Assembly: GCF_030013595.1 (NCBI RefSeq)
Contig: NZ_CP122768.1
DNA: 64,000 nucleotides
Reading direction: 5' to 3' (one strand)
Origin: Escherichia coli
GTDB taxonomy: Bacteria > Pseudomonadota > Gammaproteobacteria > Enterobacterales > Enterobacteriaceae
Below the pieces are notes generated by a model, which was given only the letters and a program-made list of their open reading frames with translations, was not told the DNA's origin and ran no database searches. Positions 24,087-64,000 of the stretch are shown here, in pieces. The stretch's first letter is position 1, and every line of letters starts with the position of its first letter. A program made the translations under genes and the position numbers.

Positions 24087-25010
24087 CTAGCGCGTTCGCT
24101 GCGAAAGCACCTGCTGCTTATCCAGCTTTTGCACCAGCGGCTGCACCACTTTATCCCCATGCTGACCAAAGTATTGATACAGCGTATCGGACGCACTTTT
24201 GGTCAGCACCATAATCTCAATGCGTCGGTTGCCCGCGCTTTGCGGATTTTTCGCGTCCAGCAGCATCTGGTCCGCCATCGCGCTTACCTGCATCACTTTA
24301 TCTTCCGGCATTCCGGCCTCTTCCAGCACCCGACGGGCCGAAAGCGCGCGATCGCCCGAAAGGTTCCAGTTGTTGTAGATATTGTTTTTGTAGGCCATCG
24401 CATCGGTATGCCCGGTAATAATAATTTTGTTATCGAGCGAGTCGAACACTGGCGCGAGCTCCACCAGCAAAGTTTTAAAGAACGGCATAATCTGCGCGCT
24501 GCCGCGTTCAAACATATTGCGGTTCTGGTCATCTTTAATCAGCACGCGTAATCCCTGCGGGACAATCTCCATCTCCAGATTCGCTTCCATATGTGCATCA
24601 CGGGCAATGGTGTTGATACTGGTTGCCAACTCGCCAAGCTCGGTGGCGGATTTCTTCTTCAGCAGCGCCGGTTTCTCATTCACATCACGCGCTTTTTTCT
24701 CCGTCTCTTCCGGCACCGCTACGGTGGCAGGTTTTGGCGGATGAGACGGGCTGATTTTATTTAACGGCGACAGCCCACCACCGTTAAAAATCGACTGCCC
24801 GTGCAGCGCGGCGATAATGCTTTCACGCTCGGATTTACTGACGCTGTTGACAATCCACAGCGTCATAAACAGCGCCATCATTGCCAAAGTAAAGTCGGCG
24901 AACGTCACCTTCCGCGCCCCGCCGTGGTGCCCGGCATGATTCTTTTTGATCTGCCGCCGGACGATGGTGGTTTTTGCCCCACGCTCGCGGCGGTTGCCCG
25001 TCTTTCTCAT
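24087..25010 (-). CDS. lafU: lateral-flagellar stator protein MotB-like (OmpA-like C-terminus), intact
   Basis: ORF trimmed to MRKTGNRRERGAKTTIVRRQIKKNHAGHHGGARKVTFADFTLAMMALFMTLW... (MotB N-terminus with TM helix); C-terminal peptidoglycan-binding region; follows the MotA-like gene. Confidence 0.85.
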   Translation of the reverse strand: MRKTGNRRERGAKTTIVRRQIKKNHAGHHGGARKVTFADFTLAMMALFMTLWIVNSVSKSERESIIAALHGQSIFNGGGLSPLNKISPSHPPKPATVAVPEETEKKARDVNEKPALLKKKSATELGELATSINTIARDAHMEANLEMEIVPQGLRVLIKDDQNRNMFERGSAQIMPFFKTLLVELAPVFDSLDNKIIITGHTDAMAYKNNIYNNWNLSGDRALSARRVLEEAGMPEDKVMQVSAMADQMLLDAKNPQSAGNRRIEIMVLTKSASDTLYQYFGQHGDKVVQPLVQKLDKQQVLSQRTR

Positions 25011-25012
25011 GC

Positions 25013-25876
25013 TTATTCTTGCTCCAGCATCGCATTCACCCACGCGTCGAGGTTGGCGAAGGTCGGTTTAGATGCCAGATGCAGCAGCTTACGCCCGGCG
25101 TCCACCGCCAGCAGGGTCGGTTTGCCGCCTGCCTGCGCCACCAGCACGGTGCGCACGCATTCCAGCAAAGAATGTTCCGCCCGTGCCTGTTGTTCCATGG
25201 CGTTGGCAAGCGGGTCCATCAGGCAGTAGCAGATAAAGACGCCTAAAAACGTCCCCACCAGAGCCGCCGCCACTTTCAGGCCAATCAGGGCGATAGATCC
25301 ATCAATCGACTGCATGGTGATGATGATGCCCAGCACCGCCGCGCAAATACCAAATCCCGGCATCGCTTCGGCAGTACGTTGCAGCGAGCGCGACGGCGTT
25401 AACAGGGACTCTTCCGCGGTGTCCAGTTCCTGATCGAGAATGCCTTCCAGTTCGTGGGCGTCGATTTTGCCCATCGCCATCAGGCGAAAGTTATCGGCAA
25501 TAAAGGTCACCAGCCGCTTCTGGGTTAATACCAACGGGTATTTCTGGAAAACGGTGCTATCTTCCGGTTGCTCAATATGCTGATCCAGCATGCGCAGGCC
25601 GCCGTTTTGTACCATTTCAAGCAACTCATACAGGCACATTAATAGCTGACGCTGAAACTCCGGCCCGAGCTGTTTTTTACTGATCACGCCTTTAATTTGA
25701 TGGGCAATCTCTTTCAGCACATGTTTCGGGTTACCAATAATCATCGCCCCAAAACCGGCACCCAAAATAATGATCATCTCCGCCGGTTGCCAGATAGCCA
25801 CTAATTGCCCGCCCGCTTCAAAATAACCGCCAAATACGCAGCCGAGCACCACCAGTAAACCTAATATTTTTTGCAT
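25013..25876 (-). CDS. lafT: lateral-flagellar stator protein MotA-like
   Basis: 287-aa four-TM MotA-type protein ending ...AALVGTFLGVFICYCLMDPLANAM... Confidence 0.85.
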   Translation of the reverse strand: MQKILGLLVVLGCVFGGYFEAGGQLVAIWQPAEMIIILGAGFGAMIIGNPKHVLKEIAHQIKGVISKKQLGPEFQRQLLMCLYELLEMVQNGGLRMLDQHIEQPEDSTVFQKYPLVLTQKRLVTFIADNFRLMAMGKIDAHELEGILDQELDTAEESLLTPSRSLQRTAEAMPGFGICAAVLGIIITMQSIDGSIALIGLKVAAALVGTFLGVFICYCLMDPLANAMEQQARAEHSLLECVRTVLVAQAGGKPTLLAVDAGRKLLHLASKPTFANLDAWVNAMLEQE

Positions 25877-25888
25877 GATTTCTTCACT

Positions 25889-26605
25889 TTAATTCGGATA
25901 GACAAAATCACGAATTTTCTGCGCGATCTGTTTATTCAGTTGACAAATTCGGGCCTCGGTTAGCCCTAATACCAGCGCAATTTCTTTGAGATTCATCTCA
26001 TGCTGGTAATACATGGAGAGGATCAGTTGCTCTTTTTCGCTTAATTGTGAAAGCGCCTGTTGCAACATTTGCTGGGTGACAAACTGATCTTCCAGTTCCC
26101 GGCCAGCAAGCGGAATGCCAGGCCCTTCGCCGTTCAGCAGTTCGTCAAGGCTGGCGAGCGTTTCCGCCCCTTCCAGTTGCTGATATTCGAGATAATCTTC
26201 ATGCGAGATCCCTTCCACGGCCAGTTCTGGCCACTCCGGTTCGTGCCCCAGTTTTTTACGCGTTTCGCGAATCAGGTCTTTCATCTGATGATATTTCTGT
26301 CGCAGCTGGCGCGGTCGCCAGTCGAGAGCGCGCAGCTCATCAAGGATCGCGCCGCGAATACGGTGCACGGCATAGCCGGCAAAACCTTCGTCCGGCAGCC
26401 CGTAGCGGCGAATGGCGTTAAGCAGCCCCATTAACGCCGTTTGTTCCATATCCTGACGGTCAATAATGCAATTACACTGCGGGGCAAGTTGCCGCACCAC
26501 TTTACGCACCAGTGGTAAATAGGCCTGCAAGTAGTGGCTCTCCTGCTGCGGGGTTAATACCGGCGCGGCAGCAAATTCTTCTGACTCGAATACGTCCTGT
26601 AGCAT
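25889..26605 (-). CDS. lafS: sigma-28 (FliA-like) sigma factor of the lateral system
   Basis: 238-aa sigma-70-family protein with region 2 and region 4 HTH (...EIALVLGLTEARICQLNKQ...). Confidence 0.85.
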   Translation of the reverse strand: MLQDVFESEEFAAAPVLTPQQESHYLQAYLPLVRKVVRQLAPQCNCIIDRQDMEQTALMGLLNAIRRYGLPDEGFAGYAVHRIRGAILDELRALDWRPRQLRQKYHQMKDLIRETRKKLGHEPEWPELAVEGISHEDYLEYQQLEGAETLASLDELLNGEGPGIPLAGRELEDQFVTQQMLQQALSQLSEKEQLILSMYYQHEMNLKEIALVLGLTEARICQLNKQIAQKIRDFVYPN

Positions 26606-26624
26606 GTTTATATCCGCCTGGTGA

Positions 26625-27092
26625 TTACTGGAAGACCACTTTTTTCACCAGCAAATCCTTATACGGTGCGCTCATTTTGCGACGTTGAAGATCTTTCTTT
26701 AACGCATCCGAAATCAGTTTGCGGATGGCAGATATTTTCATGCCGCGCAAATCTTCAAATTTCATTTCCGTCAGGCATTCAACCGCAATACTTTGATACA
26801 GCGGCTCCTGATGTTTTATTTTTTCCGCTTCTTTGTCACTGGCAACCACCATCACTAATTCCGCCGACAAATAATGGTCCGCGCCGTTGTTGTCATGCAG
26901 CGTGACAATGGTTTCCGGCAACGTCACAAACACGCTTTTGCTTTCATCCAGGGTTTCCACCGTTTCCGTCTGCGCGGCGGCAGTCGGTTTTCCTTTTCCG
27001 GCATAATGATGCCAGACACCCCATCCAGCTCCGACCCCCACCACCAACGCCAGAACGGCGCTGACCACGCCCGCCACCACGATTTTCTTCAT
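26625..27092 (-). CDS. lafF: FliL-like flagellar basal body-associated protein
   Basis: 155-aa protein with a single N-terminal TM segment, FliL-like. Confidence 0.75.
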   Translation of the reverse strand: MKKIVVAGVVSAVLALVVGVGAGWGVWHHYAGKGKPTAAAQTETVETLDESKSVFVTLPETIVTLHDNNGADHYLSAELVMVVASDKEAEKIKHQEPLYQSIAVECLTEMKFEDLRGMKISAIRKLISDALKKDLQRRKMSAPYKDLLVKKVVFQ

Positions 27093-27099
27093 ATTGCCT

Positions 27100-28161
27100 T
27101 TACACTTTGATCAAAACGGATTCGTTCTGTTGAAATTGAGGCGCATCATCAAGCTGTAAGGCGGCACTCACCTCTTCCTGCTGATGGCCCGACTGTTGTT
27201 GTTGCTGCGACTGCCCTTCGGAGGAAACCTGTACGTTCACCTCCATAAAATTTTGCGCCGTCAGATGCTGGCGGAGATCGTCGCTAAACTGTTGTAACGC
27301 GCGGCAAACTTCACTTTGGTTCGCGCCGATATGCACCATCAGTTTGCCGTTATCGAGTTGTACGGCGATCTCAAGCTTGCCAAGCGACGGTGGATCGAGA
27401 CGGATGGTGGAGATCTGCTGTTGTTTGTTGAGCTGAAAGTGGATCTGATCTTTCAAAAGCGTCGTCAGTTTTTCGCCCAGTTCGTCCATCGAAAGCGTGG
27501 CTGGTTTGGCGACAATCTCCTGATGTTCGCTGACCAGATCCGGCGTCTTAACCTGCAACACCGCACGCGCAATAACCGGTTCGCTGTCCGGCACTTTTTC
27601 CGTTTTACGCTCGACCTGCGGGCGCGCGTTCACACGGGTTAGTTCAGGTTTCGGGCGAGCTGGCTGTGTTGAGACGCGCGGCTGCGTCGGCGCAATGGCA
27701 TGTAAATATTCACTGGCGTAAGTCGCCAGTCTGGCCTGCTGTTCGGGTTTCGCCTGCGGCAACTGACTGATCAGTTCCTGCAACTGCGGCGGCAACGGCG
27801 TGAGTTCCTGCTGCTGCGTCGGGCGTTGCGGCGCGTTTTGCACCACCGCTTTCGTCAATTGCTGGATAACCGGCGATGTTGCGACGTTTCGCGGCTGCGG
27901 CGTGTCCTGATGCGGCGCGGCAGGTTGCGGAAGTAACAGCGCCATTAGCGCCTGCATCGCCACCAGATCGTTCTCCTGCGGGCGCGTCGCCTGTTGCTGA
28001 CTGGTTTTAGCGCTATGAACGCGCTCCGCCACCGCCGCGACCGCCATTTTCGGCAGGGTAAACGCGGGCGCGTTTTCACCGCTCACCGGCGGTAAAATAT
28101 CCGCCTTCAACGAAGCGGTTTCCGCAAGCGTTCCGAGCGTGGCAAGCAATGCCGGATTCAT
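27100..28161 (-). CDS. lafE: FliK-like hook-length control protein
   Basis: 353 aa, Pro/Gln-rich central region and conserved C-terminal hook-length domain. Confidence 0.75.
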   Translation of the reverse strand: MNPALLATLGTLAETASLKADILPPVSGENAPAFTLPKMAVAAVAERVHSAKTSQQQATRPQENDLVAMQALMALLLPQPAAPHQDTPQPRNVATSPVIQQLTKAVVQNAPQRPTQQQELTPLPPQLQELISQLPQAKPEQQARLATYASEYLHAIAPTQPRVSTQPARPKPELTRVNARPQVERKTEKVPDSEPVIARAVLQVKTPDLVSEHQEIVAKPATLSMDELGEKLTTLLKDQIHFQLNKQQQISTIRLDPPSLGKLEIAVQLDNGKLMVHIGANQSEVCRALQQFSDDLRQHLTAQNFMEVNVQVSSEGQSQQQQQSGHQQEEVSAALQLDDAPQFQQNESVLIKV

Positions 28162-28469
28162 GACTTCTCCGAAAGTAAATTAACAATTGAGTAGGCCAGT
28201 ACGCCTTCCTGATGCCGCTGATGCTGTTCCATACGCGCTTTCAACACTTCTGCGCGCTGCTCGCGCCGTTTAATCAGGGCGTTAAACGCGTCATACAGTC
28301 GCGCTTTCACTGCATCCAACTGCGCCGCATCGGTTTCCGCCGCCGCGTAATCGTGAAACTGGCGTATCAACTGCTGATGCAGTGCCGGAAGGCGTCGCCA
28401 GCGTTGCTTGTCGAGGGCTTCATTCATCGCCTCGACCAGTGCGAAAAGTTGCCTGCGTTGTTTTTCCAT
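28158..28469 (-). CDS. lafD: FliT-like flagellar chaperone
   Basis: 103-aa helical protein between the FliS-like and FliK-like genes. Confidence 0.6.
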   Translation of the reverse strand: MEKQRRQLFALVEAMNEALDKQRWRRLPALHQQLIRQFHDYAAAETDAAQLDAVKARLYDAFNALIKRREQRAEVLKARMEQHQRHQEGVLAYSIVNLLSEKS

Positions 28470-28473
28470 CGTC

Positions 28474-28866
28474 TTAACCCAGCTTGCCCGAAAGCCCTTC
28501 CCAGCCTTCGCGCAGGTTGCTTAAGATCAGCATCACTTCATCGATTTTCTCTGCCGACAGTTCGCCGCTGGCCTCATACAATCGGTAAACGCAGTGGTCA
28601 TAGAGTCGCGAAAGGTTGACCACCAGCTCGCCGCCAGTTTCAAACTCCAGCGAACTGGTGAGCGCATTGAGAATGTCGATGCATTTATTGATGCTCTGGG
28701 CTTTCTTCTCGAAACGCCGCCCTTCAATATGGCTTTTGGCGCGTTCCAGCTCGTCCATCAGGCCAGAAAACAGCACCAGCACCAGTTCCAGAGGCGATGC
28801 CGCCGCAGTACGCGCCGCGAGATCGATCTCTTTATATTGCGAATAGCCGTCCTGTACTTGGTACAT
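28474..28866 (-). CDS. lafC: FliS-like flagellin chaperone
   Basis: 130-aa protein MYQVQDGYSQYKEIDLAARTAAASPLELVLVLFSGL... FliS family. Confidence 0.8.
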   Translation of the reverse strand: MYQVQDGYSQYKEIDLAARTAAASPLELVLVLFSGLMDELERAKSHIEGRRFEKKAQSINKCIDILNALTSSLEFETGGELVVNLSRLYDHCVYRLYEASGELSAEKIDEVMLILSNLREGWEGLSGKLG

Positions 28867-28888
28867 CTTTAGGGATATTCCTTCTGAG

Positions 28889-30205
28889 TTACGCGAATGC
28901 CGCCATGCTGGCTTTCATGGTGTACACCTCGACCAGCGTGTTGGTGTACTCCTCGAGATAACGGTCGTAGTTGGCGTTATAGGTATCAGTAAGCTGATCG
29001 CCTTCGTCCTGAATTTTGCTCATCTGATCGTCAATGTTCTGCTGGCGCAGGGTGATGATGCCGTTGCTGGAGTCCGTGTAGGTGTTAATCAGGTCGTCCA
29101 TCTGCGCTACCATGCTGTTGTCGCCAACGAAAATAGAGGTCAGACCGTCAGGATTTTTCGCCATTTCGTCGTTGAACTGGTCGGAGTCAATCTGTAAGTG
29201 GCCGTGAGAATCGAGGGTGATGCCATAGTCAACAATCGACACGCCGTTGTAGCTGGCATGGGCGATGTCATCGAGCTGGTTCGCCAGTGAACTGAGTCCG
29301 GCGTCGCCTGCAAATACCCCGGCGCTGGTACTGTCATCACCGTGAGTGGTTAGCGAATCAACCGTATCGATCAGGGTGTTATAGGCATCGACAAAGGTCT
29401 GCACTTTCTCCTGGCTGGCGCTGGAATCTTCGCTAATGTTAAAGGTAGTGAGGTCGCTGTCAGAATCGCTGACTTCGGTGAAAGTCATGGTGACGCCGGG
29501 GATCACATCATCAAACGTATTGCTGCTGTTGGTGATCTCAGGCCCCGTGGCGCTGCCAAGATGAATAATCGCGTCCTGAGCGGAGGAAACATCCGTGGCA
29601 ACGGGCGCGCTGGTGCTATCGTTGCTGCCGTCATGCCCCGTTACGCTCACCGAAAATGCGCTCTGCGCCCCGGTGCTATCGGAGGTGAGCATAATCGTGG
29701 TGGTGCCGTCGGTTTTTACCAGTGCCGCCGACACGCCCGGATTGTCATCAGAGTCGTTAATCGCATTCACCAGCTCGCTGGCGTCGATAAAACCGTCGCC
29801 GTCACCGTTCTGATCTGCCGCCGACAGATCAATATCCATGGTGCTGTCGCCCATCGTCAGTTCAAAAGTGCCGGTGGCGGAAAAGGTGTCGTCGCCCATA
29901 CTGAACGTGGTTTGCTGCCCCTGCGCCAGTTGCTCAACGAAAAACGAGTAGCTTCCCGCCTGTGCCTGCGAGTTAGCAGAAACGGTCGCCGAGTCATTAT
30001 TGCTGGTGGCGGCAAAAGTCACCGGGCCGTCGGTATCGCTGTTCAGCGCGTCAACGGCGCTCTGAAAATCGCTTAACGCCGAGCTGAGCGAGTCCAGGCC
30101 GCTGCTTTCAGCGTCCAGCTCGGTCTGCTTCTCCTGCAAATTTGCCGCCTGGGTGGCGACATCCGCATAAGCAATTTCTTGCGCAATGGTTCTTGGGTTA
30201 ATCAT
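28889..30205 (-). CDS. lafB: FliD-like filament cap protein
   Basis: 438-aa Ser/Thr/Asp-rich axial protein with cap-like terminal heptads. Confidence 0.8.
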   Translation of the reverse strand: MINPRTIAQEIAYADVATQAANLQEKQTELDAESSGLDSLSSALSDFQSAVDALNSDTDGPVTFAATSNNDSATVSANSQAQAGSYSFFVEQLAQGQQTTFSMGDDTFSATGTFELTMGDSTMDIDLSAADQNGDGDGFIDASELVNAINDSDDNPGVSAALVKTDGTTTIMLTSDSTGAQSAFSVSVTGHDGSNDSTSAPVATDVSSAQDAIIHLGSATGPEITNSSNTFDDVIPGVTMTFTEVSDSDSDLTTFNISEDSSASQEKVQTFVDAYNTLIDTVDSLTTHGDDSTSAGVFAGDAGLSSLANQLDDIAHASYNGVSIVDYGITLDSHGHLQIDSDQFNDEMAKNPDGLTSIFVGDNSMVAQMDDLINTYTDSSNGIITLRQQNIDDQMSKIQDEGDQLTDTYNANYDRYLEEYTNTLVEVYTMKASMAAFA

Positions 30206-30235
30206 TGATGACTCCGGGTAACGATGTCAGGTTAA

Positions 30236-30252
30236 TGGCAAAAGGCGTGCCA
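30236..30252 (-). promoter_or_regulatory. sigma-54 promoter core (-24/-12) for the lafB operon
   Basis: Minus strand reads TGGCACGCCTTTTGCCA = TGGCAC-N5-TTGC, placing the predicted start site ~15-20 nt before the lafB ATG (30205). Confidence 0.65.
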
Positions 30253-30387
30253 ATATTTTTTATGTGAATAATCAATAGATTGAAAAACAGGCGGAAATGG
30301 TGTTTCCGGTCTGGCGGAAAAAAGCCTGCCGCTGAAAGCACAACACCGCCTGCAGGCGGTGTTGAGACTGATGACAAACGCAACACT

Positions 30388-30488
<101 letters not shown>

Positions 30489-30495
30489 TCCGCCA

Positions 30496-31410
30496 TTACT
30501 GCAGCAGGCTGGAAACCATGCTGGACATGCTGTTGGACTGTTTCAGCATGGTGATGCCGGTCTGCATCAGCACCTGCTGTTTGGTCATGTTGGACGCTTC
30601 CGTCGCGTAGTCGGTATCCATGATGTTACCGATAGCAACTTCGGTGTTGTCCTGCATGCTGGTCAGGTTATTAGCCGTGTCGTTCAGACGGTTGATAGAC
30701 GCACCCAGTTTGGACTGGATCTGAGACACGTCATCCATCGCGGTAGAGATGCTGGTGATCATCTGGTTAGCCGAGCCAGACGCAGTCAGCTCAGTACCGC
30801 CAGAAACGCCTGCGGTGCCCGTGGTGTCAGCCTGATCCGCACTAAAGGAGTTGCTGATAGCAGAAAGATCAGTCACCAGGGTATTCAGCTGGCTTGAAAT
30901 ATTCACGGTCATGGTGTCGGAAGATTCCGCGCCCACCTGGAAAGTTACCGCGCTCTGGAACAGACCGTCAGTACCGGTGTTGCTGGTGCCGGAAACACCG
31001 AACAGGTTGGTGCCGCCGTAAGTGGTGTTTTGCAGCATGTCAGACATCTGCTGGCCCAGTTCGTCGTATTCGTCCTGCATCGCCTGCAGGTCGTCGTCGC
31101 TGTAGGTGCCGTTCGCTGCCTGAGTTGACAGGTCTTTCATACGACCCAGCACGTCAGACATTTCGTCGAACATGCTGTCAGCGGTTTGCAGCATCGCGGT
31201 GGCATCATTGATGTTGCTCAGCGCAACACCCATACCGCTGGACTGTGCTGTCAGACGGTTAGCAATTTGTTTGCCTGCGGCGTCATCGGCAGAAGAGTTA
31301 ATCCGGTTACCCGTTGCCAGGCGTTCCATAGATGTAGACAGAGAAGAGCTGCTTTTGCTGATTGCATTAACGGCGGCCATTGAGGCGTTATTGGTGTTAA
31401 TAGATAACAT
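30496..31410 (-). CDS. lafA: lateral flagellin
   Basis: ORF trimmed to MLSINTNNASMAAVNAISKSSSSLSTSMERLATGNRINSSADDAAGKQIANRL... (flagellin N-terminus) with C-terminal ...QTGITMLKQSNSMSSMVSSLLQ; AAGGA 8 nt upstream of ATG 31410. Confidence 0.9.
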   Translation of the reverse strand: MLSINTNNASMAAVNAISKSSSSLSTSMERLATGNRINSSADDAAGKQIANRLTAQSSGMGVALSNINDATAMLQTADSMFDEMSDVLGRMKDLSTQAANGTYSDDDLQAMQDEYDELGQQMSDMLQNTTYGGTNLFGVSGTSNTGTDGLFQSAVTFQVGAESSDTMTVNISSQLNTLVTDLSAISNSFSADQADTTGTAGVSGGTELTASGSANQMITSISTAMDDVSQIQSKLGASINRLNDTANNLTSMQDNTEVAIGNIMDTDYATEASNMTKQQVLMQTGITMLKQSNSMSSMVSSLLQ

Positions 31411-31455
31411 GATACTGCTCCTTGGGATTAATCGTTTTCGTTTCGATACCCTGTA

Positions 31456-31482
31456 AAAACGACACCTCGGGAGCAAACTTAA
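31456..31482 (-). promoter_or_regulatory. candidate sigma-28-type promoter for lafA (weak -10)
   Basis: Minus strand TTAAGTTT-N11-GTCGTTTT versus consensus TAAAGTTT-N11-GCCGATAA; -35 7/8, -10 only 4/8. Confidence 0.3.
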
Positions 31483-31843
31483 AACCGCTATGAAAAAAAT
31501 TCGCTACGTATTATCCGATGCCACTTTTAGCTAAAAAAAGCAGAGTTTAAATTCAGATAAAAAGATTATTAGCAATATCTGCCACATGGCCAGGTATCAA
31601 AATATGTCTTAATCAAACGCTTGATATAGTTAAGATTGTCATCAATTATCGCGTTTTGTTCTCAATGTACTGATGCCAAAATTTACATTGCGTTGCAAAT
31701 AGCACACATTTGGCTATTGTACCTGTCCTGTCATTTCGTTACATTTCCACGCCATATAGTGATTAAGAATAATCCTATTACCGTAAAATATTAATTATCA
31801 CGCAGAAAAATCATCTTCTCAGGGACGTATAAGACTGTGCTTT

Positions 31844-32737: not shown

Positions 32738-32750
32738 TGAGTGCCAATAT

Positions 32751-32788
32751 ATGCCGGATACGACGCTAAAGGCGTCTTATCCGGCTGA
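32751..32788. repeat. REP-like palindrome between lafZ and lafW
   Basis: atgccggatacgacgctaaaggcgtcttatccggctga. Confidence 0.6.
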
Positions 32789-32791
32789 TAA

Positions 32792-54389: not shown

Positions 54390-54392
54390 GGG

Positions 54393-55403: not shown

Positions 55404-57027
55404 TGCTGGTGATCCATTGTCTGAGAACTTCGGCTACGCGATCGGTGTCGCTCATGGCCAGTTTTTGCAGGAACTCGAGTTTTACTTCGAGGCCGGAACT
55501 CTGGGACGGCAGGCTGTCATCACCAGGCAGCGACGGCAGGTCGACGTTTTTGCGCTCCTCTTCCGGCATGGCAATCCACGGTTCGCTGACAGCTTCCGGT
55601 TCTGGTGTGATAACTGGCGCACGTACCGCCGTCAGCCGTTTCATCAGTGGGCGCACCACGAACAACAGCAACAACAGCGCCAGCAGGCCACAGCCAATCA
55701 GCCGCACCCAGGCCAGCACGCTGTCATCTTTCCACAGCGGAATAATTGGTTCGACCGGCATCGCCTGCGGGACAAAGTTAAGCAGCGATAAGGTGAGATT
55801 GTCACCGCGCTGGACGTCAATCCCGGCGGCATTGTTCAGCAACGCGGTCAGTTGCGCAGTCTGCTCCGGCTTCCAGTTTTTCAGCGCCGGGGCGTTTTGA
55901 TTGAGCACCACCGCCACGTTAAGGCGTTTCACCGCAAATCCGGGATGCTGAATATGCTGGACGCTGCGGTCGTAAGAGTAATCGCGCTTGCTTTCGCTGT
56001 GTTTCGAAAGCGCTTCCGGCGAGCGGTTTTCTTCCGTGCCGTTGGTCATTTGATTCGCCGCAACCGGCGGGCGGTTGCTGAGCGAACCGGGCACGCCCAT
56101 CGCCACCTGGTTAGTGTCGCTGTCCAGCACGCTCTCTTCGCGGTTGATTTTCGGCGCGTCGCCGTAGTGTTCCTGGGTTTCGTCGATGGTACTGAGGTCG
56201 AGATCCGGCATCACGCTGACGCGGTAATTCCCCGTACCAACCAGCGAATCCAGCACGTTCGCCACGCTGGCGCGGGTTTTGTCCTGGATATCTTTGAGGA
56301 TCTGATCGCGTTTACGGGTGGCGGCAGAAACCGCCTCGCCTGCGCCAATGCCGTCGGTCAGCAGATTTCCCGCCTGATCGACGACGCTAACTTTGCTGGC
56401 GTGCAGCCCCGGAATGCTGTCGGACACCAGATGCACAATGGCGTTCACCTGGTCCATATTCAGCTTCGCGCCGTAGTGCAGGCGCACCACCACCGAGGCG
56501 CTGTTTTGCGGCTCATCGCTGACCACAAACGAGCTTTCTTCGTTAAGCGCCAGATGCACCCGTGCGCTCTCCACCGCGTCCAGCGACATAATGCTCTGCG
56601 CCAGCTCCCCTTCGAGGCTGCGTTTGTAGCGCACGTTCTGCACGAACTGGCTGCTGCCGAGCACTTCGTCTTTGTCCATCAGCTCGTAGCCGCTGGGCAA
56701 TATCGCCTGCACGCCTTTGGCGGCAAGGGTCATGCGCGTTTTCGACAGTTCATCTTCCGGCACCAGAATTTGCCCGCTCTGCGGGTCAATGCGGTAGCTG
56801 AGCTTTTCACCGTCCAGCACGGTGACAATCTGCGACACAGGCAGATTTTCCTGGCGTCCGTAGAGCGAGACGTAGCCGCGATTACCGGTCCACAGCACAC
56901 TAACGATAATCGCCGTCGCCGCAACGGCAAGCCCCACTCCCGCCATCAATGCCCAGCGTTTGTTATCTGCAAGACGCAGTCGAAACGCCGGAAACGCCTG
57001 GGTTAACTTATTTATTTGTGCATTCAT
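55381..57027 (-). CDS. lfiF: FliF-like MS-ring protein
   Basis: 548 aa with N- and C-terminal TM segments, FliF family. Confidence 0.88.
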   Translation of the reverse strand: MNAQINKLTQAFPAFRLRLADNKRWALMAGVGLAVAATAIIVSVLWTGNRGYVSLYGRQENLPVSQIVTVLDGEKLSYRIDPQSGQILVPEDELSKTRMTLAAKGVQAILPSGYELMDKDEVLGSSQFVQNVRYKRSLEGELAQSIMSLDAVESARVHLALNEESSFVVSDEPQNSASVVVRLHYGAKLNMDQVNAIVHLVSDSIPGLHASKVSVVDQAGNLLTDGIGAGEAVSAATRKRDQILKDIQDKTRASVANVLDSLVGTGNYRVSVMPDLDLSTIDETQEHYGDAPKINREESVLDSDTNQVAMGVPGSLSNRPPVAANQMTNGTEENRSPEALSKHSESKRDYSYDRSVQHIQHPGFAVKRLNVAVVLNQNAPALKNWKPEQTAQLTALLNNAAGIDVQRGDNLTLSLLNFVPQAMPVEPIIPLWKDDSVLAWVRLIGCGLLALLLLLFVVRPLMKRLTAVRAPVITPEPEAVSEPWIAMPEEERKNVDLPSLPGDDSLPSQSSGLEVKLEFLQKLAMSDTDRVAEVLRQWITSNERIDNK

Positions 57028-57031
57028 AGGG

Positions 57032-57373
57032 TTAGATCGACATACTCATCAGATCGTTAAATCCGGTGGCGATTTTGTTGCGCACCTGCACCAGCGCGGA
57101 GAACGAGAGCGATGCCTGCTGGCTGGCGATCATCGCGCCGGCCAGGTCATCGCTTTTACCCAGGTCGATTGCCGTTTGCTGCTGCTCCGCCACCTGCTGG
57201 AACTGGTCAACGTGACCGAGCGCACCGCTCATAATGCGGTTAAACGACACGTCCGGGTCGGTGGAACTGAAGGTCATGGCGGGCAGCACCGGTGCCTGGG
57301 CGTTGGCCTGCATCCGCTGCACGTCCTGCATGATTTGCGCCTGCATGGTGCTGTTGATTGTGGTAATGCTCAT
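57032..57373 (-). CDS. lfiE: FliE-like basal body protein
   Basis: 113 aa, ...FNDLMSMSI C-terminus, FliE family. Confidence 0.8.
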   Translation of the reverse strand: MSITTINSTMQAQIMQDVQRMQANAQAPVLPAMTFSSTDPDVSFNRIMSGALGHVDQFQQVAEQQQTAIDLGKSDDLAGAMIASQQASLSFSALVQVRNKIATGFNDLMSMSI

Positions 57374-57387
57374 TTTTAACTTCCGGG

Positions 57388-58374
57388 TCAGGAGAAAACT
57401 TCAATACCGTGCTTGCGCATGGAGGCCAGTCGATAGCGCAGTGCGCGCGGGGTAATGCCTAACAGGTCGGCAATTTTGCTGCGGTTGCCCTGATATTTAC
57501 GCATCAGGTCGGCGATATATTGATACTGGGCGCTACGTCCGGCCTGGCCTAAATCGCTGGTTTCCGCAACAGATACGGAGGGCTGAATGGGCCATTGCAG
57601 TTCGCTGTGGTCGGCAATGTCATTTTCCGGCAGGCCTAACGCGTCCGGGTAAATCACGCCGTCGCGATTTAAAATCATTCCCCGCTGAATGGCGTTTTCC
57701 AGCTGGCGCACATTACCCGGCCAGCGGTAATTCAGCAGCGCACGGCGGGTAGATTCCGAAAGGGTGATATTTTTCACCAGCACCGTGGAGTATTTTTTAA
57801 TAAATGACTCTGCCAGCGGAATAATATCGTTCAGACGTTCACGCAGCGGCGGCATGGTAATAGGAATAACCACCAGACGATAATAGAGATCTTCACGAAA
57901 ACGCCCTTCGGCGACTTCCTGCTCAAGGTTTTTATTGGTGCAGGCAATCAGGCGAAAATTGAGTTTAATTTGTCGGTTGCTGCCTAATCGCTCAACCTGT
58001 TGTTCCTGCAATACGCGTAATATTTTGGCCTGTAATGCCAGCGGCATATCGCCAATTTCATCGAGCAATAAGGTGCCGTTATTTGCCAGTTCCATTTTGC
58101 CTGGCACGCTGGCAATTGCGCCGGTAAATGCGCCTTTGTCGTAGCCAAATAATGTAGCTTCCAGCATGTTTTCCGGGATCGCCGCGCAGTTCACGCCGAC
58201 ATAGGGTGCGCTTTCATTTTCACCAAAGGCTACGGTGTGAATATATTTTGCCACGCACTCTTTGCCCGCGCCGGTTTCGCCCTGAATGAGCACCGGCACG
58301 TTAAATGCGGCGACACGCTTTGCCAGAGTAAAAGCGTTAATGCTGGAAGCGGCAGTTGCAATAAGTTCAGACAT
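57388..58374 (-). CDS. lafK: sigma-54-dependent transcriptional activator without an N-terminal receiver domain (AAA+ plus C-terminal HTH only)
   Basis: 328 aa; Walker A GETGAGKE ~30 residues from the N-terminus, GAFTGA loop, C-terminal HTH ...SKIADLLGITPRALRYRL. Confidence 0.85.
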   Translation of the reverse strand: MSELIATAASSINAFTLAKRVAAFNVPVLIQGETGAGKECVAKYIHTVAFGENESAPYVGVNCAAIPENMLEATLFGYDKGAFTGAIASVPGKMELANNGTLLLDEIGDMPLALQAKILRVLQEQQVERLGSNRQIKLNFRLIACTNKNLEQEVAEGRFREDLYYRLVVIPITMPPLRERLNDIIPLAESFIKKYSTVLVKNITLSESTRRALLNYRWPGNVRQLENAIQRGMILNRDGVIYPDALGLPENDIADHSELQWPIQPSVSVAETSDLGQAGRSAQYQYIADLMRKYQGNRSKIADLLGITPRALRYRLASMRKHGIEVFS

Positions 58375-58526
58375 AGGGTGAACGATATAAGTAGCGACAA
58401 TAATCAGGATGTTCTGAAGCGTATCACCGGCGGGATTAACAAGTTCGAATTAAACGATAATAAAAATATTATTTGATGGTAAACAATGAGTTAGATATTA
58501 ATACTGTTAATTTGGACATCTGTGAT

Positions 58527-58567
58527 GCCCCCTCACCCTAACCCTCTCCCCGGATGGGGCGAGGGGA
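58527..58567. repeat. partial copy (one arm) of the GC-rich palindromic repeat, copy D
   Basis: ccctcaccctaaccctctccccggatggggcgaggggaca in the lafK-lfiM divergent intergenic region. Confidence 0.65.
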
Positions 58568-58746
58568 CAGACCGCAGACTGATTGGCGAAAATCACTCCC
58601 ATTAAGCAATTAATCGATTAATTATTTTTTCATCCTATTAATAATTTGCCCCTTTCACTCCCCCTCTATTTAATACCTCACCTTGTGTCACTGCCGGATT
58701 TGCGTGCACAAAATCGCCCATACCATTACAGCAGAGAAAGTAAGCC

Positions 58747-59598
58747 ATGCTGAAGTACAGTAAAACGCCAGGCATCTTTAAATTAGAAGGTAATCGGCTC
58801 GGACGCCCCTACCATCGCCTGCCGACCCTGTTTACGGGGAATTTTGACGTGATTGATTCGCATCTTGGCAGCTACTTTCTCAAAAAGCATCGCAGCAATA
58901 TCACCTTAAAAAAGATTGGCTGCGAAATGGATATTATTAATAAAAACGCCGAGCTGATGGTTTCCCAGGTCGGGCATCTGGCGTTTGATATTGATCGCTC
59001 CTTGCTGTTAATGCTGCTGGGCAATTTTTATGGTCTGGAGTCGTCTCTTGAAGAGGCGAAAGACCATAATGGCCTGCCGACCAAAACCGAAACGCGGTTA
59101 AAGAACCGCCTCGCGCTGGATATCTGCACGCTGATTTTTAATCTGCAAACCTCCGGTATTGCGCTGAAATTAAAGCTGGATAGCAGCACGGTGATTACCC
59201 ACTGGGCGTATCAATTAACCTTTACCCTCGCGGGTGATGAAGAGAGCAGTTTTCGTATTTTGCTCGACGACGCCCATACCGATTTTATTTTAAATCTGAT
59301 CCGCCACAGCGAGCACAGTAAACCGCAGCAGGTGGCAAAATCGGTTAATAAACCGGCCCTGATTAAAGAAATCATCCGCTCCCTGCCGCTGACCCTGAAC
59401 GTCAAAATCGCCGAGCTGTCGATGAATGTCGCCGATCTGGCGCAGATAAAAGCCGGGGATATTTTACCCATCTCGCTGGGAGAAACGTTCCCGGTGGCGA
59501 TTGGGCAATCTGAATTATTTAGCGCCCTGATTGTGGAAGACAAAGACAAACTGTTTTTGTCGGAGCTGGCGGGCAAAAATGAGAATAGCCATGAGTAA
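58747..59598 (+). CDS. lfiM: FliM-like switch protein
   Basis: 283 aa; precedes the FliN-like gene with overlapping stop/start. Confidence 0.65.
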   Translation: MLKYSKTPGIFKLEGNRLGRPYHRLPTLFTGNFDVIDSHLGSYFLKKHRSNITLKKIGCEMDIINKNAELMVSQVGHLAFDIDRSLLLMLLGNFYGLESSLEEAKDHNGLPTKTETRLKNRLALDICTLIFNLQTSGIALKLKLDSSTVITHWAYQLTFTLAGDEESSFRILLDDAHTDFILNLIRHSEHSKPQQVAKSVNKPALIKEIIRSLPLTLNVKIAELSMNVADLAQIKAGDILPISLGETFPVAIGQSELFSALIVEDKDKLFLSELAGKNENSHE

Positions 59599-59962
59599 GC
59601 AAGAAGATATTTTAGCCGGGGATTTTGGCCTCACCGATGAAGTTGCGCCTGTCGCGAAATCCGCCGACGCTGAAACGCTGGTCACCCGCCTGGAAGACCG
59701 CTTTTCCGACTCGATGACGCTGCTGAAACGCATTCCGGTGACCTTAACGCTGGAAGTGTCGTCGGTGGAAATTATGTTAGCCGACCTGCTTAACATCGAC
59801 GACGACACGGTGATTGAGCTGGATAAGCTCGCCGGGGAGCCGCTGGATATCAAAGTGAACAATATCCTGCTGGGCAAAGCGGAAGTGGTGGTGGTCAACG
59901 AGAAGTACGGCCTGCGCGTGCTGGAGTTTAACACCCGCGATATCAACGACCTGGCACCATGA
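59591..59962 (+). CDS. lfiN: FliN-like switch protein
   Basis: MSKQEDILAGDF... C-terminal SpoA-like ...GEPLDIKVNNILLGKAEVVVVNEKYGLRVLEF; ATG overlaps the lfiM stop (alternative ATG at 59579). Confidence 0.8.
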   Translation: MSKQEDILAGDFGLTDEVAPVAKSADAETLVTRLEDRFSDSMTLLKRIPVTLTLEVSSVEIMLADLLNIDDDTVIELDKLAGEPLDIKVNNILLGKAEVVVVNEKYGLRVLEFNTRDINDLAP

Positions 59963-60711
59963 AACGCCGCACTCAACTGACGCTGGGCCTTGGGCTGCTG
60001 GCGCTTGCGCCGCTGGCGTTAGCCCAGGGTGGCGATATTGCGCTGCTTAACGTGGTCACCCACGGCAACACTCAGGAGTACAGCGTCAAAATCCAGGTGC
60101 TGATTCTGATGACCCTCGTCGGTTTGCTGCCGACGATGGTGCTGATGATGACCTGCTTTACGCGCTTTATTATCGTGCTGTCGCTGCTGCGCCAGGCGCT
60201 GGGGCTGCAACAAACGCCGCCAAACCGTATTCTGATTGGTATTGCGCTCTCACTCACCATGCTGGTGATGCGCCCTATCTGGCTCAATATTTACGACCAT
60301 GCGGTGGTGCCGTTCGAAAACGATCGGATTACGCTGACCGATGCGTTAAGCATCGCCGCGACGCCGCTGAAACGCTTTATGCTGGCGCAGACCGACAAAA
60401 AAGCGATGGCGCAAATCATGACCATCGGCGGCGCAAAGGGCAATGCCGCCGACCAGGATCTCTCGATTGTGGTGCCCGCCTATGTGTTGAGCGAGCTGAA
60501 AACGGCCTTCCAGATTGGCTTTATGATTTACATCCCGTTTCTGGTTATCGACCTGATTGTCGCCAGCGTATTGATGGCGATGGGGATGATGATGCTGTCG
60601 CCGCTGATTGTTTCGCTGCCCTTTAAACTGATGCTGTTTGTGCTGATCGACGGCTGGTCGCTGACAATCGGTACGCTCACCACCAGCATTCGCGGGCTGG
60701 GGCTGGGCTGA
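59959..60711 (+). CDS. lfiP: FliP-like export gate protein
   Basis: 250 aa with signal peptide and FliP TM pattern; ATG overlaps the lfiN stop. Confidence 0.88.
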   Translation: MKRRTQLTLGLGLLALAPLALAQGGDIALLNVVTHGNTQEYSVKIQVLILMTLVGLLPTMVLMMTCFTRFIIVLSLLRQALGLQQTPPNRILIGIALSLTMLVMRPIWLNIYDHAVVPFENDRITLTDALSIAATPLKRFMLAQTDKKAMAQIMTIGGAKGNAADQDLSIVVPAYVLSELKTAFQIGFMIYIPFLVIDLIVASVLMAMGMMMLSPLIVSLPFKLMLFVLIDGWSLTIGTLTTSIRGLGLG

Positions 60712-60713
60712 TT

Positions 60714-60986
60714 ATGTTGACCGTAGACGTAGCCGCCGACATTGTCGCGAGCGGCATTAAAGTGGTGATTTTACTGGTTTCGGTACTGGTAGTGCCAAGC
60801 CTGCTGGTTGGCCTGCTGGTGAGCGTGTTCCAGGCGGTGACGCAGATTAACGAACAGACCCTGAGTTTTTTGCCGAGGCTGATTGTCACGCTGGTGGTGC
60901 TGGGCGTGTGCGGCAAATGGATGATTATCCAATTGCATGATCTGTGTATTCATCTGTTTACCCAGGCCGCGTTGCTGGTGCATTAA
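60714..60986 (+). CDS. lfiQ: FliQ-like export gate protein
   Basis: 90-aa two-TM protein. Confidence 0.85.
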   Translation: MLTVDVAADIVASGIKVVILLVSVLVVPSLLVGLLVSVFQAVTQINEQTLSFLPRLIVTLVVLGVCGKWMIIQLHDLCIHLFTQAALLVH

Positions 60987-60987
60987 G

Positions 60988-61770
60988 ATGCGCACAAGCG
61001 ACGTTACGCAACTGATGGATCTGGCGATGGGGCTGTGGTTTCCCTTCGTGCGCATTATGGCGTTTCTGCGCTATGTGCCGGTGCTGGATAACAGCGCCCT
61101 GACCGTGCGCGTGCGGATCATTTTGTCGCTGGCGCTGGCAATCATCATCACGTCGTTGATCCCCCATCCCATTCCCCATGATTTGCTATCGCTCAACAGC
61201 CTGATCCTGACGGTGGAGCAAATTTTATGGGGCATGTTGTTCGGGCTGATGTTTCAGTTTCTGTTTCTCGCGCTACAACTCGCCGGGCAAATTCTCTCGT
61301 TCAATATGGGGATGAGCATGGCGGTGATGAACGACCCGAGCAGCGGCGCATCGACCACCGTGCTGGCGGAGCTTATCAACGTCTACGCGATCCTGCTGTT
61401 TTTTGCCATGGATGGGCATCTGCTGCTGGTGAGCGTGCTGTATAAGGGTTTCACCTACTGGCCGATCGGCAACGCGCTGCATCCGCAAACCCTGCGCACC
61501 ATCGCGCTAGCCTTTAGCTGGGTGCTGGCGTCCGCATCGCTGCTGGCGCTGCCGACCACCTTCATTATGCTGATTGTGCAGGGCTGCTTTGGCCTGCTTA
61601 ACCGTATTGCACCGCCGCTGAACCTCTTTTCACTGGGCTTTCCCATCAACATGCTGGCGGGGCTGGTCTGCTTCGCCACCCTGCTCTACAACCTGCCGGA
61701 TCACTATCTGCATCTGGCGAATTTTGTCCTGCAACAACTCGACGCGCTGAAAGGTCACTATGGCGGATAG
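60988..61770 (+). CDS. lfiR: FliR-like export gate protein
   Basis: ORF trimmed to ATG 60988 (MRTSDVTQLMDLAMGLWFPFVR...), polytopic membrane protein. Confidence 0.85.
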   Translation: MRTSDVTQLMDLAMGLWFPFVRIMAFLRYVPVLDNSALTVRVRIILSLALAIIITSLIPHPIPHDLLSLNSLILTVEQILWGMLFGLMFQFLFLALQLAGQILSFNMGMSMAVMNDPSSGASTTVLAELINVYAILLFFAMDGHLLLVSVLYKGFTYWPIGNALHPQTLRTIALAFSWVLASASLLALPTTFIMLIVQGCFGLLNRIAPPLNLFSLGFPINMLAGLVCFATLLYNLPDHYLHLANFVLQQLDALKGHYGG

Positions 61771-62899
61771 CAGCAGCGAAGAAAAAACAGAGAAACCCTC
61801 GGCGCAAAAGCTGCGTAAAGCGCGTGAAGAGGGGCAACTGCCACGCTCGAAGGATATGGGGCTGGCGGCGAGCCTGTTTGCGGCGTTTGTGGTGATCTCC
61901 AGTAGCTTCCCGTGGTATGCCGATTTTGTGCGCGAGAGTTTTATCAGCGTGCATCAGTACGCGCAGGAGATTAATAACCCGGATGTGATCGGCCAGTTTC
62001 TGCGCCATCACCTGTTAATTCTCGGCAAGTTTATTCTCACCTTGCTGCCGATGCCCGCCGCCGCGCTGCTCTCCTCGCTGGTGCCCGGCGGCTGGCTGTT
62101 CTTGCCGAAAAAAATCCTCCCGGATTTCAGCAAAATCAGCCCGTTAAAAGGCATTGGGCGACTGTTTTCCAGCGAACATCTGGCGGAAACGGGAAAGATG
62201 ACGGTGAAGTCGGTGGTGGTGCTGGTGATGCTGTGGGTAAGCCTGCGCAATAACTTTGTCGCCTTTCTCGGCCTGCAGGCACTGCCGTTCAAAGTAGCGA
62301 TGAATGACGGTTTATCGCTCTACGCCAGCGTGATGCGCAACTTTGTCATCCTGTTTATCTTCTTTGCGTTAATCGACGTGCCGCTGGCGAAAGCCCTGTT
62401 CACCAAAGGGCTGAAGATGACCAAACAGGAGCTGAAAGAAGAGTATAAAAATCAGGAAGGCAAGCCGGAAGTGAAGGCGCGCGTGCGGCGGCTGCAACGG
62501 CAGCTGGCGATGGGGCAAATCCGCAAAGTGGTGCCGAAAGCCAACGTGGTGATCACCAACCCGACCCACTACGCCGTTGCGTTGCAGTACGACCAGTCGC
62601 GCGCCGCCGCGCCGTTTGTGGTGGCGAAAGGCACCGATGAAATCGCCCTCTATATTCGCCAGGTCGCCACGGAGAATCAGGTAGAAGTGGTCGAGTTCCC
62701 GCGGCTGGCGCGCTCGGTTTACTACACCACCCAGGTGAACCAACAAATTCCGTTTCAGCTTTACCGGGCCATTGCCCACGTTCTGACCTACGTCCTACAA
62801 ATGAAACACTGGCGCGAGGGCGCACAGCCGCGCCCGGCCCTGAACAGACATATTTCCATTCCCAAAGAGGTGCTTAAACTGGATGGCGAAAACAACTAA
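61760..62899 (+). CDS. lfhB: FlhB-like export switch protein
   Basis: 379 aa, MADSSSEEKTEKPSAQKLRKAREEGQLPRSKD... with NPTH autocleavage motif (...VVITNPTHYAVAL...). Confidence 0.9.
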   Translation: MADSSSEEKTEKPSAQKLRKAREEGQLPRSKDMGLAASLFAAFVVISSSFPWYADFVRESFISVHQYAQEINNPDVIGQFLRHHLLILGKFILTLLPMPAAALLSSLVPGGWLFLPKKILPDFSKISPLKGIGRLFSSEHLAETGKMTVKSVVVLVMLWVSLRNNFVAFLGLQALPFKVAMNDGLSLYASVMRNFVILFIFFALIDVPLAKALFTKGLKMTKQELKEEYKNQEGKPEVKARVRRLQRQLAMGQIRKVVPKANVVITNPTHYAVALQYDQSRAAAPFVVAKGTDEIALYIRQVATENQVEVVEFPRLARSVYYTTQVNQQIPFQLYRAIAHVLTYVLQMKHWREGAQPRPALNRHISIPKEVLKLDGENN

Positions 62900-64000
62900 A
62901 TCGTTCCTCGCGCTGCTGCGCGGCGGCAATCTCGGCGTGCCGCTGGTGATACTTTGTATTCTGGCGATGGTTATTCTGCCGCTGCCGCCTGCGCTGCTGG
63001 ATATTCTGTTCACCTTCAACATTGTGCTGGCGGTGATGGTGCTGCTGGTGGCGGTGTCGGCGAAACGACCGCTGGAATTCAGCCTGTTCCCGACCATTTT
63101 GCTGATCACTACCTTAATGCGCCTGACGCTCAACGTTGCTTCTACGCGCGTGGTGCTGCTGCACGGGCATCTCGGCGCGGGCGCGGCGGGTAAGGTGATT
63201 GAGTCGTTTGGTCAGGTGGTGATTGGCGGCAACTTTGTCGTCGGTTTCGTGGTGTTTATCATCCTGATGATCATCAACTTTATTGTCGTCACCAAAGGGG
63301 CCGAGCGTATTTCCGAGGTTTCTGCCCGCTTTACCCTGGACGCGATGCCCGGCAAACAGATGGCGATTGACGCCGATCTTAACGCCGGGTTGATCAACCA
63401 GGCGCAGGCGCAAACCCGGCGTAAAGATGTTGCCAGCGAGGCCGATTTCTACGGCGCAATGGACGGGGCATCGAAGTTTGTGCGCGGGGACGCCATCGCC
63501 GGGATGATGATTCTGGCGATCAACCTGATCGGCGGCGTCTGTATCGGGATCTTCAAATACAACCTGAGCGCCGATGCCGCCTTCCAGCAATATGTGCTGA
63601 TGACCATCGGCGACGGCCTGGTGGCGCAGATCCCGTCCCTGCTGCTCTCCACCGCGGCGGCAATTATCGTCACCCGCGTCAGCGACAACGGCGATATCGC
63701 CCATGACGTGCGCCACCAGCTGCTGGCAAGCCCGTCGGTGCTCTACACCGCCACCGGGATCATGTTTGTGCTGGCGGTGGTGCCGGGGATGCCGCATCTG
63801 CCGTTTTTGCTGTTCAGCGCCCTGTTGGGTTTTACCGGCTGGCGGATGAGCAAACGCCCGCAGGCGGCGGAGGCAGAAGAGAAAAGCCTCGAAACGCTGA
63901 CCCGGACTATCACCGAAACCAGCGAGCAACAGGTCAGTTGGGAAACCATTCCGCTGATCGAGCCTATCAGTTTAAGTCTCGGCTACAAGCTGGTGGCGTT
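62883..64000 (+). CDS. lfhA: FlhA-like export gate protein, 5' portion (continues beyond the window)
   Basis: ATG 62883 (MAKTTKSFLALLRGGNLGVPLVILCILAM...) open to the window end; FlhA TM domain motifs (...FTLDAMPGKQMAIDADL...). Confidence 0.88.
   Translation, partial: MAKTTKSFLALLRGGNLGVPLVILCILAMVILPLPPALLDILFTFNIVLAVMVLLVAVSAKRPLEFSLFPTILLITTLMRLTLNVASTRVVLLHGHLGAGAAGKVIESFGQVVIGGNFVVGFVVFIILMIINFIVVTKGAERISEVSARFTLDAMPGKQMAIDADLNAGLINQAQAQTRRKDVASEADFYGAMDGASKFVRGDAIAGMMILAINLIGGVCIGIFKYNLSADAAFQQYVLMTIGDGLVAQIPSLLLSTAAAIIVTRVSDNGDIAHDVRHQLLASPSVLYTATGIMFVLAVVPGMPHLPFLLFSALLGFTGWRMSKRPQAAEAEEKSLETLTRTITETSEQQVSWETIPLIEPISLSLGYKLVA

Follow-up and report, generated by a model that had tools for sequence, protein, structure and literature searches.

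Identity and layout of the Flag-2 locus

We analysed a stretch of 64,000 nucleotides from Escherichia coli (contig NZ_CP122768.1 of assembly GCF_030013595.1), referred to here as the window. Positions 24087-64000 are the known E. coli Flag-2 locus, a lateral-type secondary flagellar system. An earlier sequence-only reading had proposed this identity and these coordinates, and both turned out to be exact: the region is collinear throughout with the Flag-2 locus of E. coli 042 (NC_017626, 284682-323159, our reference) at 95-98% nucleotide identity, and a megablast search of 5426 complete E. coli genomes returned the pig isolate HCP5S3_I2 as best match at 99.9% identity. At the protein level, 042 Flag-2 proteins searched against the window with tblastn are 92-100% identical to their counterparts. 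Alignment to 042 was the check that the same reading had suggested; collinear homology holds, and no fundamental departure from Flag-2 was seen. Gene names used below are drawn from the Prokaryotic Genome Annotation Pipeline (PGAP)/RefSeq annotation of HCP5S3_I2 and of E. coli 042.

The locus starts directly beside dinB (22961-24016, minus strand) and comprises the canonical three clusters with 39 genes, namely 38 complete genes and the 5' 53% of lfhA, ordered as in 042. Cluster 3, from lafU to lafW, occupies 24087-33769, with lafZ on the plus strand. Cluster 2, from lfgL to lfgN, spans 33786-47651, lfgL to lfgB being on the minus strand and lfgA, lfgM and lfgN on the plus strand. Variable region 1 follows at 47779-51909, and cluster 1, from lfiJ to lfhA, fills 51912-64000, with lfiJ to lafK on the minus strand and lfiM to lfhA on the plus strand. 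The yafL side of the locus lies beyond the window and is present in the 99.9% identical HCP5S3_I2.

De Maayer et al. (2020) used lafK, lafW and lafZ, which lack a Flag-1 counterpart, as Flag-2 markers (PMC6993521). All three are full length and open in the window and 96.6-98.5% identical to those of 042. Variable region 1 is likewise recognizable by its content, with a glycosyltransferase, a TagD-like enzyme and lafV between lfgN and lfiJ.

Intactness of the core genes

Direct translation of each gene showed that 38 of the 38 complete core genes begin with a start codon, end with a stop codon and are uninterrupted in between. Each also gave a single full-length tblastn match to its 042 protein, and Pfam and NCBIfam profiles confirmed the domain identities of LafA, LafS, LafT, LafU, LafK, LafB, LfiI, LfiF, LfgE, LfgC, LfhB and LfhA. 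The sequence-only reading had described all three clusters as having intact frames and had named frameshifts or premature stops as what would speak against it. Its description stands for the complete core genes, which are clean. It does not extend to lafV in variable region 1, the only place where such a lesion was found and a minor one, and lfhA is visible for 372 of its 697 codons.

In cluster 3, lafU (24087-25010, minus strand) encodes a MotB-like stator protein of 307 amino acids. Its claimed full length was borne out: the gene is open, and the product matches 042 LafU over 307 of 307 amino acids at 98.4% identity, scores 569 bits against the NCBIfam LafU equivalog and carries Pfam MotB_plug and OmpA domains. 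On the same strand lie lafT (25013-25876; MotA-like stator protein, 287 amino acids; Pfam MotA_N and MotA_ExbB) and lafS (25889-26605; sigma-28 or FliA-type sigma factor, 238 amino acids; Pfam Sigma70 regions 2 and 4), both open with full-length 042 matches. The same holds for lafF (FliL-like), lafE (FliK-like, hook-length control), lafD, lafC (FliS-like) and lafB (FliD-like cap, with Pfam FliD_N and FliD_C), which occupy 26625-30205 on the minus strand. The lateral flagellin gene lafA (30496-31410, minus strand; 304 amino acids; Pfam Flagellin_N and Flagellin_C) encodes a protein 100% identical to 042 LafA. The cluster is completed by lafZ (31895-32737, plus strand), an open gene for a membrane-type winged-helix regulator of 280 amino acids (98.2% identical to 042; Pfam Trans_reg_C), and by lafW (32792-33769, minus strand), an open gene for a Flag-2-specific putative hook-associated protein of 325 amino acids (98.5% identical to 042) that had no Pfam or NCBIfam match in profile searches.

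Cluster 2 begins with lfgL, lfgK, lfgJ, lfgI, lfgH, lfgG, lfgF, lfgE, lfgD, lfgC and lfgB (33786-43020, minus strand), all open with full-length 042 matches. Their products are the hook, rod, L/P-ring and hook-associated proteins, with Pfam matches for lfgE and lfgC. The 143-codon lfgC (42251-42682, minus strand) is intact here, whereas the 042 copy is flagged 'frameshifted', a lesion thought to have inactivated the 042 system (PMC2808357, PMC3032704). On the plus strand, lfgA (43102-43839; P-ring assembly chaperone, 245 amino acids) is open with a full-length 042 match, and lfgM (anti-sigma-28 factor, 91 amino acids) and lfgN (export chaperone, 142 amino acids), together at 46935-47651, are open and match 042.

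Cluster 1 opens with lfiJ, lfiI (export ATPase), lfiH, lfiG, lfiF (MS ring) and lfiE (51912-57373, minus strand), all intact. They are followed by lafK (57388-58374, minus strand), an open gene for a sigma-54-dependent activator of 328 amino acids that lacks a receiver domain and carries the GAFTGA motif at residue 81. The switch-complex and export-gate genes lfiM, lfiN, lfiP, lfiQ, lfiR and lfhB (58747-62899, plus strand) are all intact as well, and LfhB has the NPTH autocleavage motif at residue 267. As the sequence-only reading had noted, lfhA (FlhA-type export gate) runs off the window, starting at 62883 and leaving after codon 372 of 697. The visible part (62883-64000, plus strand) is open, 100% identical to 042 over residues 1-372, and covers positions 1-342 of the 657-position Pfam FHIPEP profile. 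In HCP5S3_I2, lfhA is complete with all 697 codons.

Variable region 1 and the lafV frameshift

The first gene of variable region 1, lafV (47779-48706, plus strand), is a FliB-like pseudogene (lysine-N-methylase in PGAP) that tblastn recovers as two pieces in different frames. Nucleotide alignment with 042 attributes the break to a single extra T at about 48543, which turns CAG-TTT into CAG-TTTT. The frame shifts by +1 at about codon 255 of 309, giving a product of 276 amino acids with an out-of-frame tail. HCP5S3_I2 has the same insertion, and PGAP flags that copy 'frameshifted'. We counted the alleles in the 5426 genomes with 37-nucleotide queries in which every 28-mer, the word-size setting, spans the T run: the TTTT allele occurs in 2 genomes, both closely related pig isolates, and the TTT allele in 1269. 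This disparity marks the lesion as recent and lineage-specific.

A surplus base in a T run can also arise as a sequencing or assembly error, in which case the locus would really be fully intact, and the allele is otherwise carried by just two assemblies, which come from a single pig study. We consider this explanation highly improbable. Homopolymer errors typically need a longer run than three to four bases, the identical allele is found in those two further independent assemblies, and the window shows no other coding indel relative to them. A phase-variable tract was rejected too: the run has only three or four T, with four in 2 of about 1271 carriers.

Against the NCBIfam FliB model NF038110, the frameshifted LafV of the window scores 37.1 bits over profile positions 105-338 of 373, the equivalog cutoff being 85; the score is for this frameshifted product. 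Falling below the cutoff, LafV is at best a distant FliB relative. In Salmonella, loss of FliB-dependent flagellin methylation leaves flagellar assembly and motility standing. By this comparison, the lafV lesion is unlikely to be disabling.

The other two genes of the region are a glycosyltransferase gene of 823 codons (48889-51360, plus strand), which is open and matches 042, and a gene for a TagD-like protein of the glycerol-3-phosphate cytidylyltransferase family (51505-51909, minus strand; 134 amino acids). The latter is assigned at family level only, because its score against NCBIfam TIGR01518 is 114 bits, below the cutoff of 165. The glycosyltransferase has an N-terminal GT2 domain confined to residues 20-133, and neither Pfam nor NCBIfam matched its other approximately 690 residues. 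An open reading frame (ORF) of 898 amino acids at 48664-51360 might suggest a fusion of LafV with the glycosyltransferase; we rejected it, as the shifted lafV reading, which is in a different frame, ends at 48709, and alignment of the glycosyltransferase with 042 begins at 48889. Together, the three enzymes of variable region 1 (glycosyltransferase, TagD-like protein and LafV) would modify the LafA flagellin, and in this strain lafV was recently inactivated by the 1-bp insertion.

A restriction-modification insert between lfgA and lfgM

The sequence-only reading had also pointed to extra content in the locus, which we could specify as an EcoRII-type restriction-modification pair of 3.0 kb in the lfgA-lfgM spacer. 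The insert (43845-46864; 3020 bp, about 37% guanine plus cytosine, GC) replaces about 5 bp of the 042 spacer. It encodes a Dcm or M.EcoRII-type C5-cytosine DNA methyltransferase of 474 amino acids (44027-45451, plus strand) with Pfam DNA_methylase and DNA_meth_N domains, an NCBIfam PRK10458 score of 911.9 bits against a cutoff of 710, and the FxGxG (FAGIG), PC (GFPCQP) and ENV motifs. Its partner (45539-46744, minus strand) is an EcoRII-type restriction endonuclease of 401 amino acids, with Pfam EcoRII-N (203 bits) and EcoRII-C (235.8 bits), which aligns to EcoRII (PDB 1NA6) over its full length, residues 1-399, with E = 3.8e-188.

The insert is present in 28 of the 5426 genomes, and EcoRII (401 amino acids) and Dcm (474 amino acids) have already been reported as flag-2 cargo in 21 Escherichia strains (De Maayer et al., 2020; PMC6993521). 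Its borders were searched for hallmarks of mobile elements, and neither a transposase or integrase nor terminal repeats, inverted or direct, turned up. The 70 bp preceding lfgM survive on the right-hand side of the insert, among them a TAAAGTTT element. The pair would be self-contained passenger DNA, an independent selfish or defence module rather than a part of the flagellum. A tandem repeat with a 9-bp unit, CAGAACGAC (46798-46830), lies immediately upstream of the gene for the endonuclease and varies in copy number between close relatives, the window having two more copies (18 bp) than HCP5S3_I2.

Promoter motifs and intergenic repeats

Two perfect sigma-54 motifs, TGGCAC-N5-TTGC, were found in the whole window against 0.30 expected by chance, one upstream of lafB (30238-30252, minus strand) and one upstream of lfgB (43058-43072, minus strand). 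Both are correctly oriented and conserved in place in 042, strain 1190, JNEC-KY177 and HCP5S3_I2. A further site with one mismatch precedes lafV.

Several intergenic gaps of the locus hold repeats whose presence differs between the window and 042. An insert of the repetitive extragenic palindromic (REP) or bacterial interspersed mosaic element (BIME) type in the lafA-lafB gap (30365-30454) is absent from 042 and contains a match to Rfam ES036 at 30409-30451; an Rfam scan of the locus returned nothing beyond this REP-derived match. A second REP/BIME element lies at 41415-41539. Copies of a GC-rich palindromic repeat, CCCTCACCCTAACCCTCTCCCC...GGGGCGAGGGGA, occur at about 36200-36300, 48715-48765 and 58525-58570. 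Variable region 2 (32738-32791) is empty, the 782-bp cargo of 042, consisting of RelE/ParE and helix-turn-helix (HTH) genes, being absent.

Other features of the window

To the left of tRNA-Thr(CGT) (12986-13061), window positions 1-12985 form a genomic island at the thrW site, where the closest genome has a lambdoid prophage instead. The island carries a T5orf172/MUG113-domain protein (369-1613), a split ISL3 transposase (2523-4143), an AEP-TOTE primase of the 'TOTE conflict system' (4659-5684, minus strand), a DUF3987 protein in two ORFs (7424-8874, minus strand) and ORFs of 532 and 198 amino acids without a Pfam match; its GC content is 38-40% over 6-12 kb. Further along, phoE (15826-16887) is an open ORF of 353 amino acids in the window, whereas the HCP5S3_I2 copy contains an internal stop and is annotated as a pseudogene. 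Between pepD and yafP (20954-21508), only remnants of an rtcB-family gene and of prfH are left, as in K-12 (ykfJ and prfH pseudogenes), whereas E. coli 042 retains intact rtcB-family and prfH genes there.

Selection and function

We next consider whether the locus is maintained and whether it could work. Measured against 042 by the Nei-Gojobori method, all 41 Flag-2 genes taken together have a ratio of nonsynonymous to synonymous divergence (dN/dS) of 0.07 at a dS of 0.13, with values of 0.01 to 0.09 for the stator, switch and export genes. Purifying selection has thus acted on the core, which fits a maintained system. We hold with high confidence the combined reading of the locus as a known Flag-2 member, situated between dinB and yafL, with a maintained core and potentially functional.

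The gene set encodes the parts of a complete apparatus: LfhAB and LfiPQR for the type III export gate, LfiHIJ for the ATPase complex, LfiFGMN for the MS and C rings, LfgB-L for the rod, hook and L/P rings, LafA and LafB for filament and cap, and LafTU for a MotAB-type stator. By analogy with Vibrio and Aeromonas, LafK, acting with sigma-54, would switch on the hook-basal-body operons, and LafS (sigma-28), restrained by LfgM, would switch on the late genes including lafA.

The term 'potentially functional', used by the sequence-only reading, is compatible with the open core frames, the dN/dS of 0.07, the conserved sigma-54 motifs and the GAFTGA and NPTH motifs. Its reliance on gene-by-gene intactness fared less well: lafV is frameshifted, and function in E. 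coli cannot be predicted from intact frames, since EC958 is silent (PMC4637896). Besides the lafV lesion described above, several points weigh against a working system. Sister loci show decay, with frameshifts in lfgC of 042 and in flgE of JNEC-KY177. No sigma-54 motif precedes lafK or lfiM, even with up to two mismatches allowed. A sigma-28 scan (TAAAG-N13-16-GCCGATAA, up to three mismatches) returned dozens of matches, mostly intragenic and uninformative; the sole item noted, by eye, was the TAAAGTTT element upstream of lfgM. The 3' 47% of lfhA (325 codons) is beyond the window. A fliC mutant of EC958, an ST131 (sequence type 131) strain with intact lfgC, was non-motile, and its LafA was undetectable by western blot at 28 and 37 °C (PMC4637896). 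Finally, E. coli Flag-2 lacks motY and maf-5, which are needed in Vibrio and Aeromonas, and its activity has never been shown (PMC3032704).

Published tests of Flag-2 function in E. coli, in EC958 and 042, were negative (PMC4637896, PMC3032704), and a search limited to one paper library, from 2018 onward, turned up no later demonstration in E. coli. A functional flag-2 locus is attributed to Plesiomonas shigelloides (PMC4481668, as cited in PMC6993521). In ordinary laboratory culture, E. coli Flag-2 is most probably silent, being either conditionally expressed or cryptic. It seems to us unlikely that functional lateral flagella, or an export apparatus of the flagellar type, are built from the locus in some natural setting yet untried. 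If they were, E. coli would have its first demonstrated second flagellar system that works, and the EcoRII insert, which parts lfgMN from lfgA, would alter the timing of anti-sigma-factor expression.

The silence in EC958 (PMC4637896) can also be read in a less favourable way: the locus may be a relic that is unexpressed in E. coli and on its way to loss, with the lafV frameshift as the first visible decay in this lineage. That lesion can be likened to the lfgC frameshift of 042 and to the en-bloc deletion in K-12; the independent frameshifts in 042 and JNEC-KY177, the approximately 77% of complete genomes without the locus, and the toleration of foreign restriction-modification cargo and REP elements within it all point the same way. 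Against gradual loss, the dN/dS of 0.07 over 41 genes, at a dS of 0.13, points to purifying selection over a long period, none of the 38 complete core genes is interrupted, and strain 1190 has no pseudogene in its Flag-2 locus. The sole lesion of the locus affects an accessory gene without a structural role and, being confined to 2 of about 1271 carriers, is very recent, and all five indels between the window and its nearest genome are intergenic. We regard the relic explanation as a real possibility that is nevertheless somewhat less probable than its opposite.

That purifying selection acts although motility cannot be demonstrated in E. coli (PMC4637896) might instead reflect a role other than motility. 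Following a proposal of De Maayer et al., the apparatus could be kept to export cargo for secretion or adhesion by the flagellar type III route, or as an organelle of the surface or of adhesion. In support, a flag-2 knockout of Yersinia enterocolitica is cited as leaving motility unaffected (as cited in PMC6993521), and variable-region cargo in some taxa resembles secretion substrates (PMC6993521). In the window, no candidate secreted effector was seen in the variable regions, variable region 2 being empty and variable region 1 holding modification enzymes only. Moreover, genes needed only for rotation (lafT, lafU and the switch genes) match the export genes in conservation, at dN/dS values of 0.035-0.06. 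This alternative is improbable in our assessment.

Overall, we favour the reading of a known Flag-2 member with a maintained, potentially functional core. The finding itself is ordinary, because the locus is well described and carried by about a quarter of strains and because the EcoRII insert is known: the locus, the K-12 remnants, the variable region 1 genes and the EcoRII/Dcm cargo have all been published, and nothing here is new. Flag-2 has been known since 2005 and its distribution and cargo were catalogued in 2020, so that the locus matters little as a discovery. The open core makes the strain a reasonable candidate for an expression experiment, no better than hundreds of others such as strain 1190.

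Comparison with known systems

Flag-2 was reportedly first described in enteroaggregative E. coli 042, by Ren et al. in 2005 (J Bacteriol 187:1430). The locus of the window shares with that of 042 the dinB-yafL site, the 39 conserved genes with their order and orientation, and the variable region 1 content (LafV, 823-amino-acid glycosyltransferase and TagD-like enzyme). The two differ in their lesions, lfgC being intact in the window and frameshifted in 042 and lafV the reverse; in their cargo, with the RelE/ParE-HTH genes of variable region 2 in 042 only and the EcoRII insert in the window only; and in the REP inserts of three intergenic gaps. As a separate observation, dS relative to 042 is 0.19 for dinB and 0.13 on average for Flag-2, values high for comparisons within E. 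coli. Because dS varies about 10-fold (0.03-0.31) between neighbouring genes, a recombination mosaic is suggested.

K-12 carries only remnants at this site, as the sequence-only reading had stated: beside dinB, the MG1655 annotation lists only the pseudogenes lfhA' and lafU'. By blastn against MG1655, the K-12 deletion corresponds to about 24856-63263 of the window, or approximately 38.4 kb. Its left breakpoint lies inside lafU, at 24844-24855. This segment and 63264-63275 within lfhA are imperfect copies of a short direct repeat, at which the two K-12 alignments overlap by 12 nucleotides. The deletion agrees with the published account (PMC6993521), which reports flag-2 in 24 of 100 E. coli strains and lfhA/lafU remnants in the other 76. 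At a coverage of at least 80%, we found the region in 1239 (for 24087-49000) and 1257 (for 43000-64000) of the 5426 genomes by megablast, about 23%.

Among other carriers, the EcoRII/Dcm-carrying Flag-2 loci of strain 1190 (NZ_CP023386) and HCP5S3_I2 (NZ_CM149870) have the same pair of 401 and 474 amino acids at the same lfgA-lfgM site. HCP5S3_I2 is 99.9% identical to the window and has the lafV frameshift in common with it, whereas strain 1190 has an intact lafV and also the toxin-antitoxin pair of variable region 2. JNEC-KY177 differs by its flgE frameshift.

The insert itself resembles EcoRII (PDB 1NA6), a type IIE system that recognises CCWGG, in having both endonuclease domains, a full-length alignment and a Dcm-family methylase as partner. 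It differs in that the window endonuclease is diverged, with many substitutions seen in the alignment, and in that the window pair is chromosomal and inside a flagellar locus.

Beyond E. coli, the closest functional parallels are the laf systems of Vibrio parahaemolyticus and Aeromonas hydrophila. Judged from the literature (PMC6993521, PMC3032704) and from domain matches, the gene set is alike, including LafK, LafS, LafA and LafTU. Compared by description, E. coli Flag-2 differs from these systems in being without motY and maf-5 (PMC3032704).

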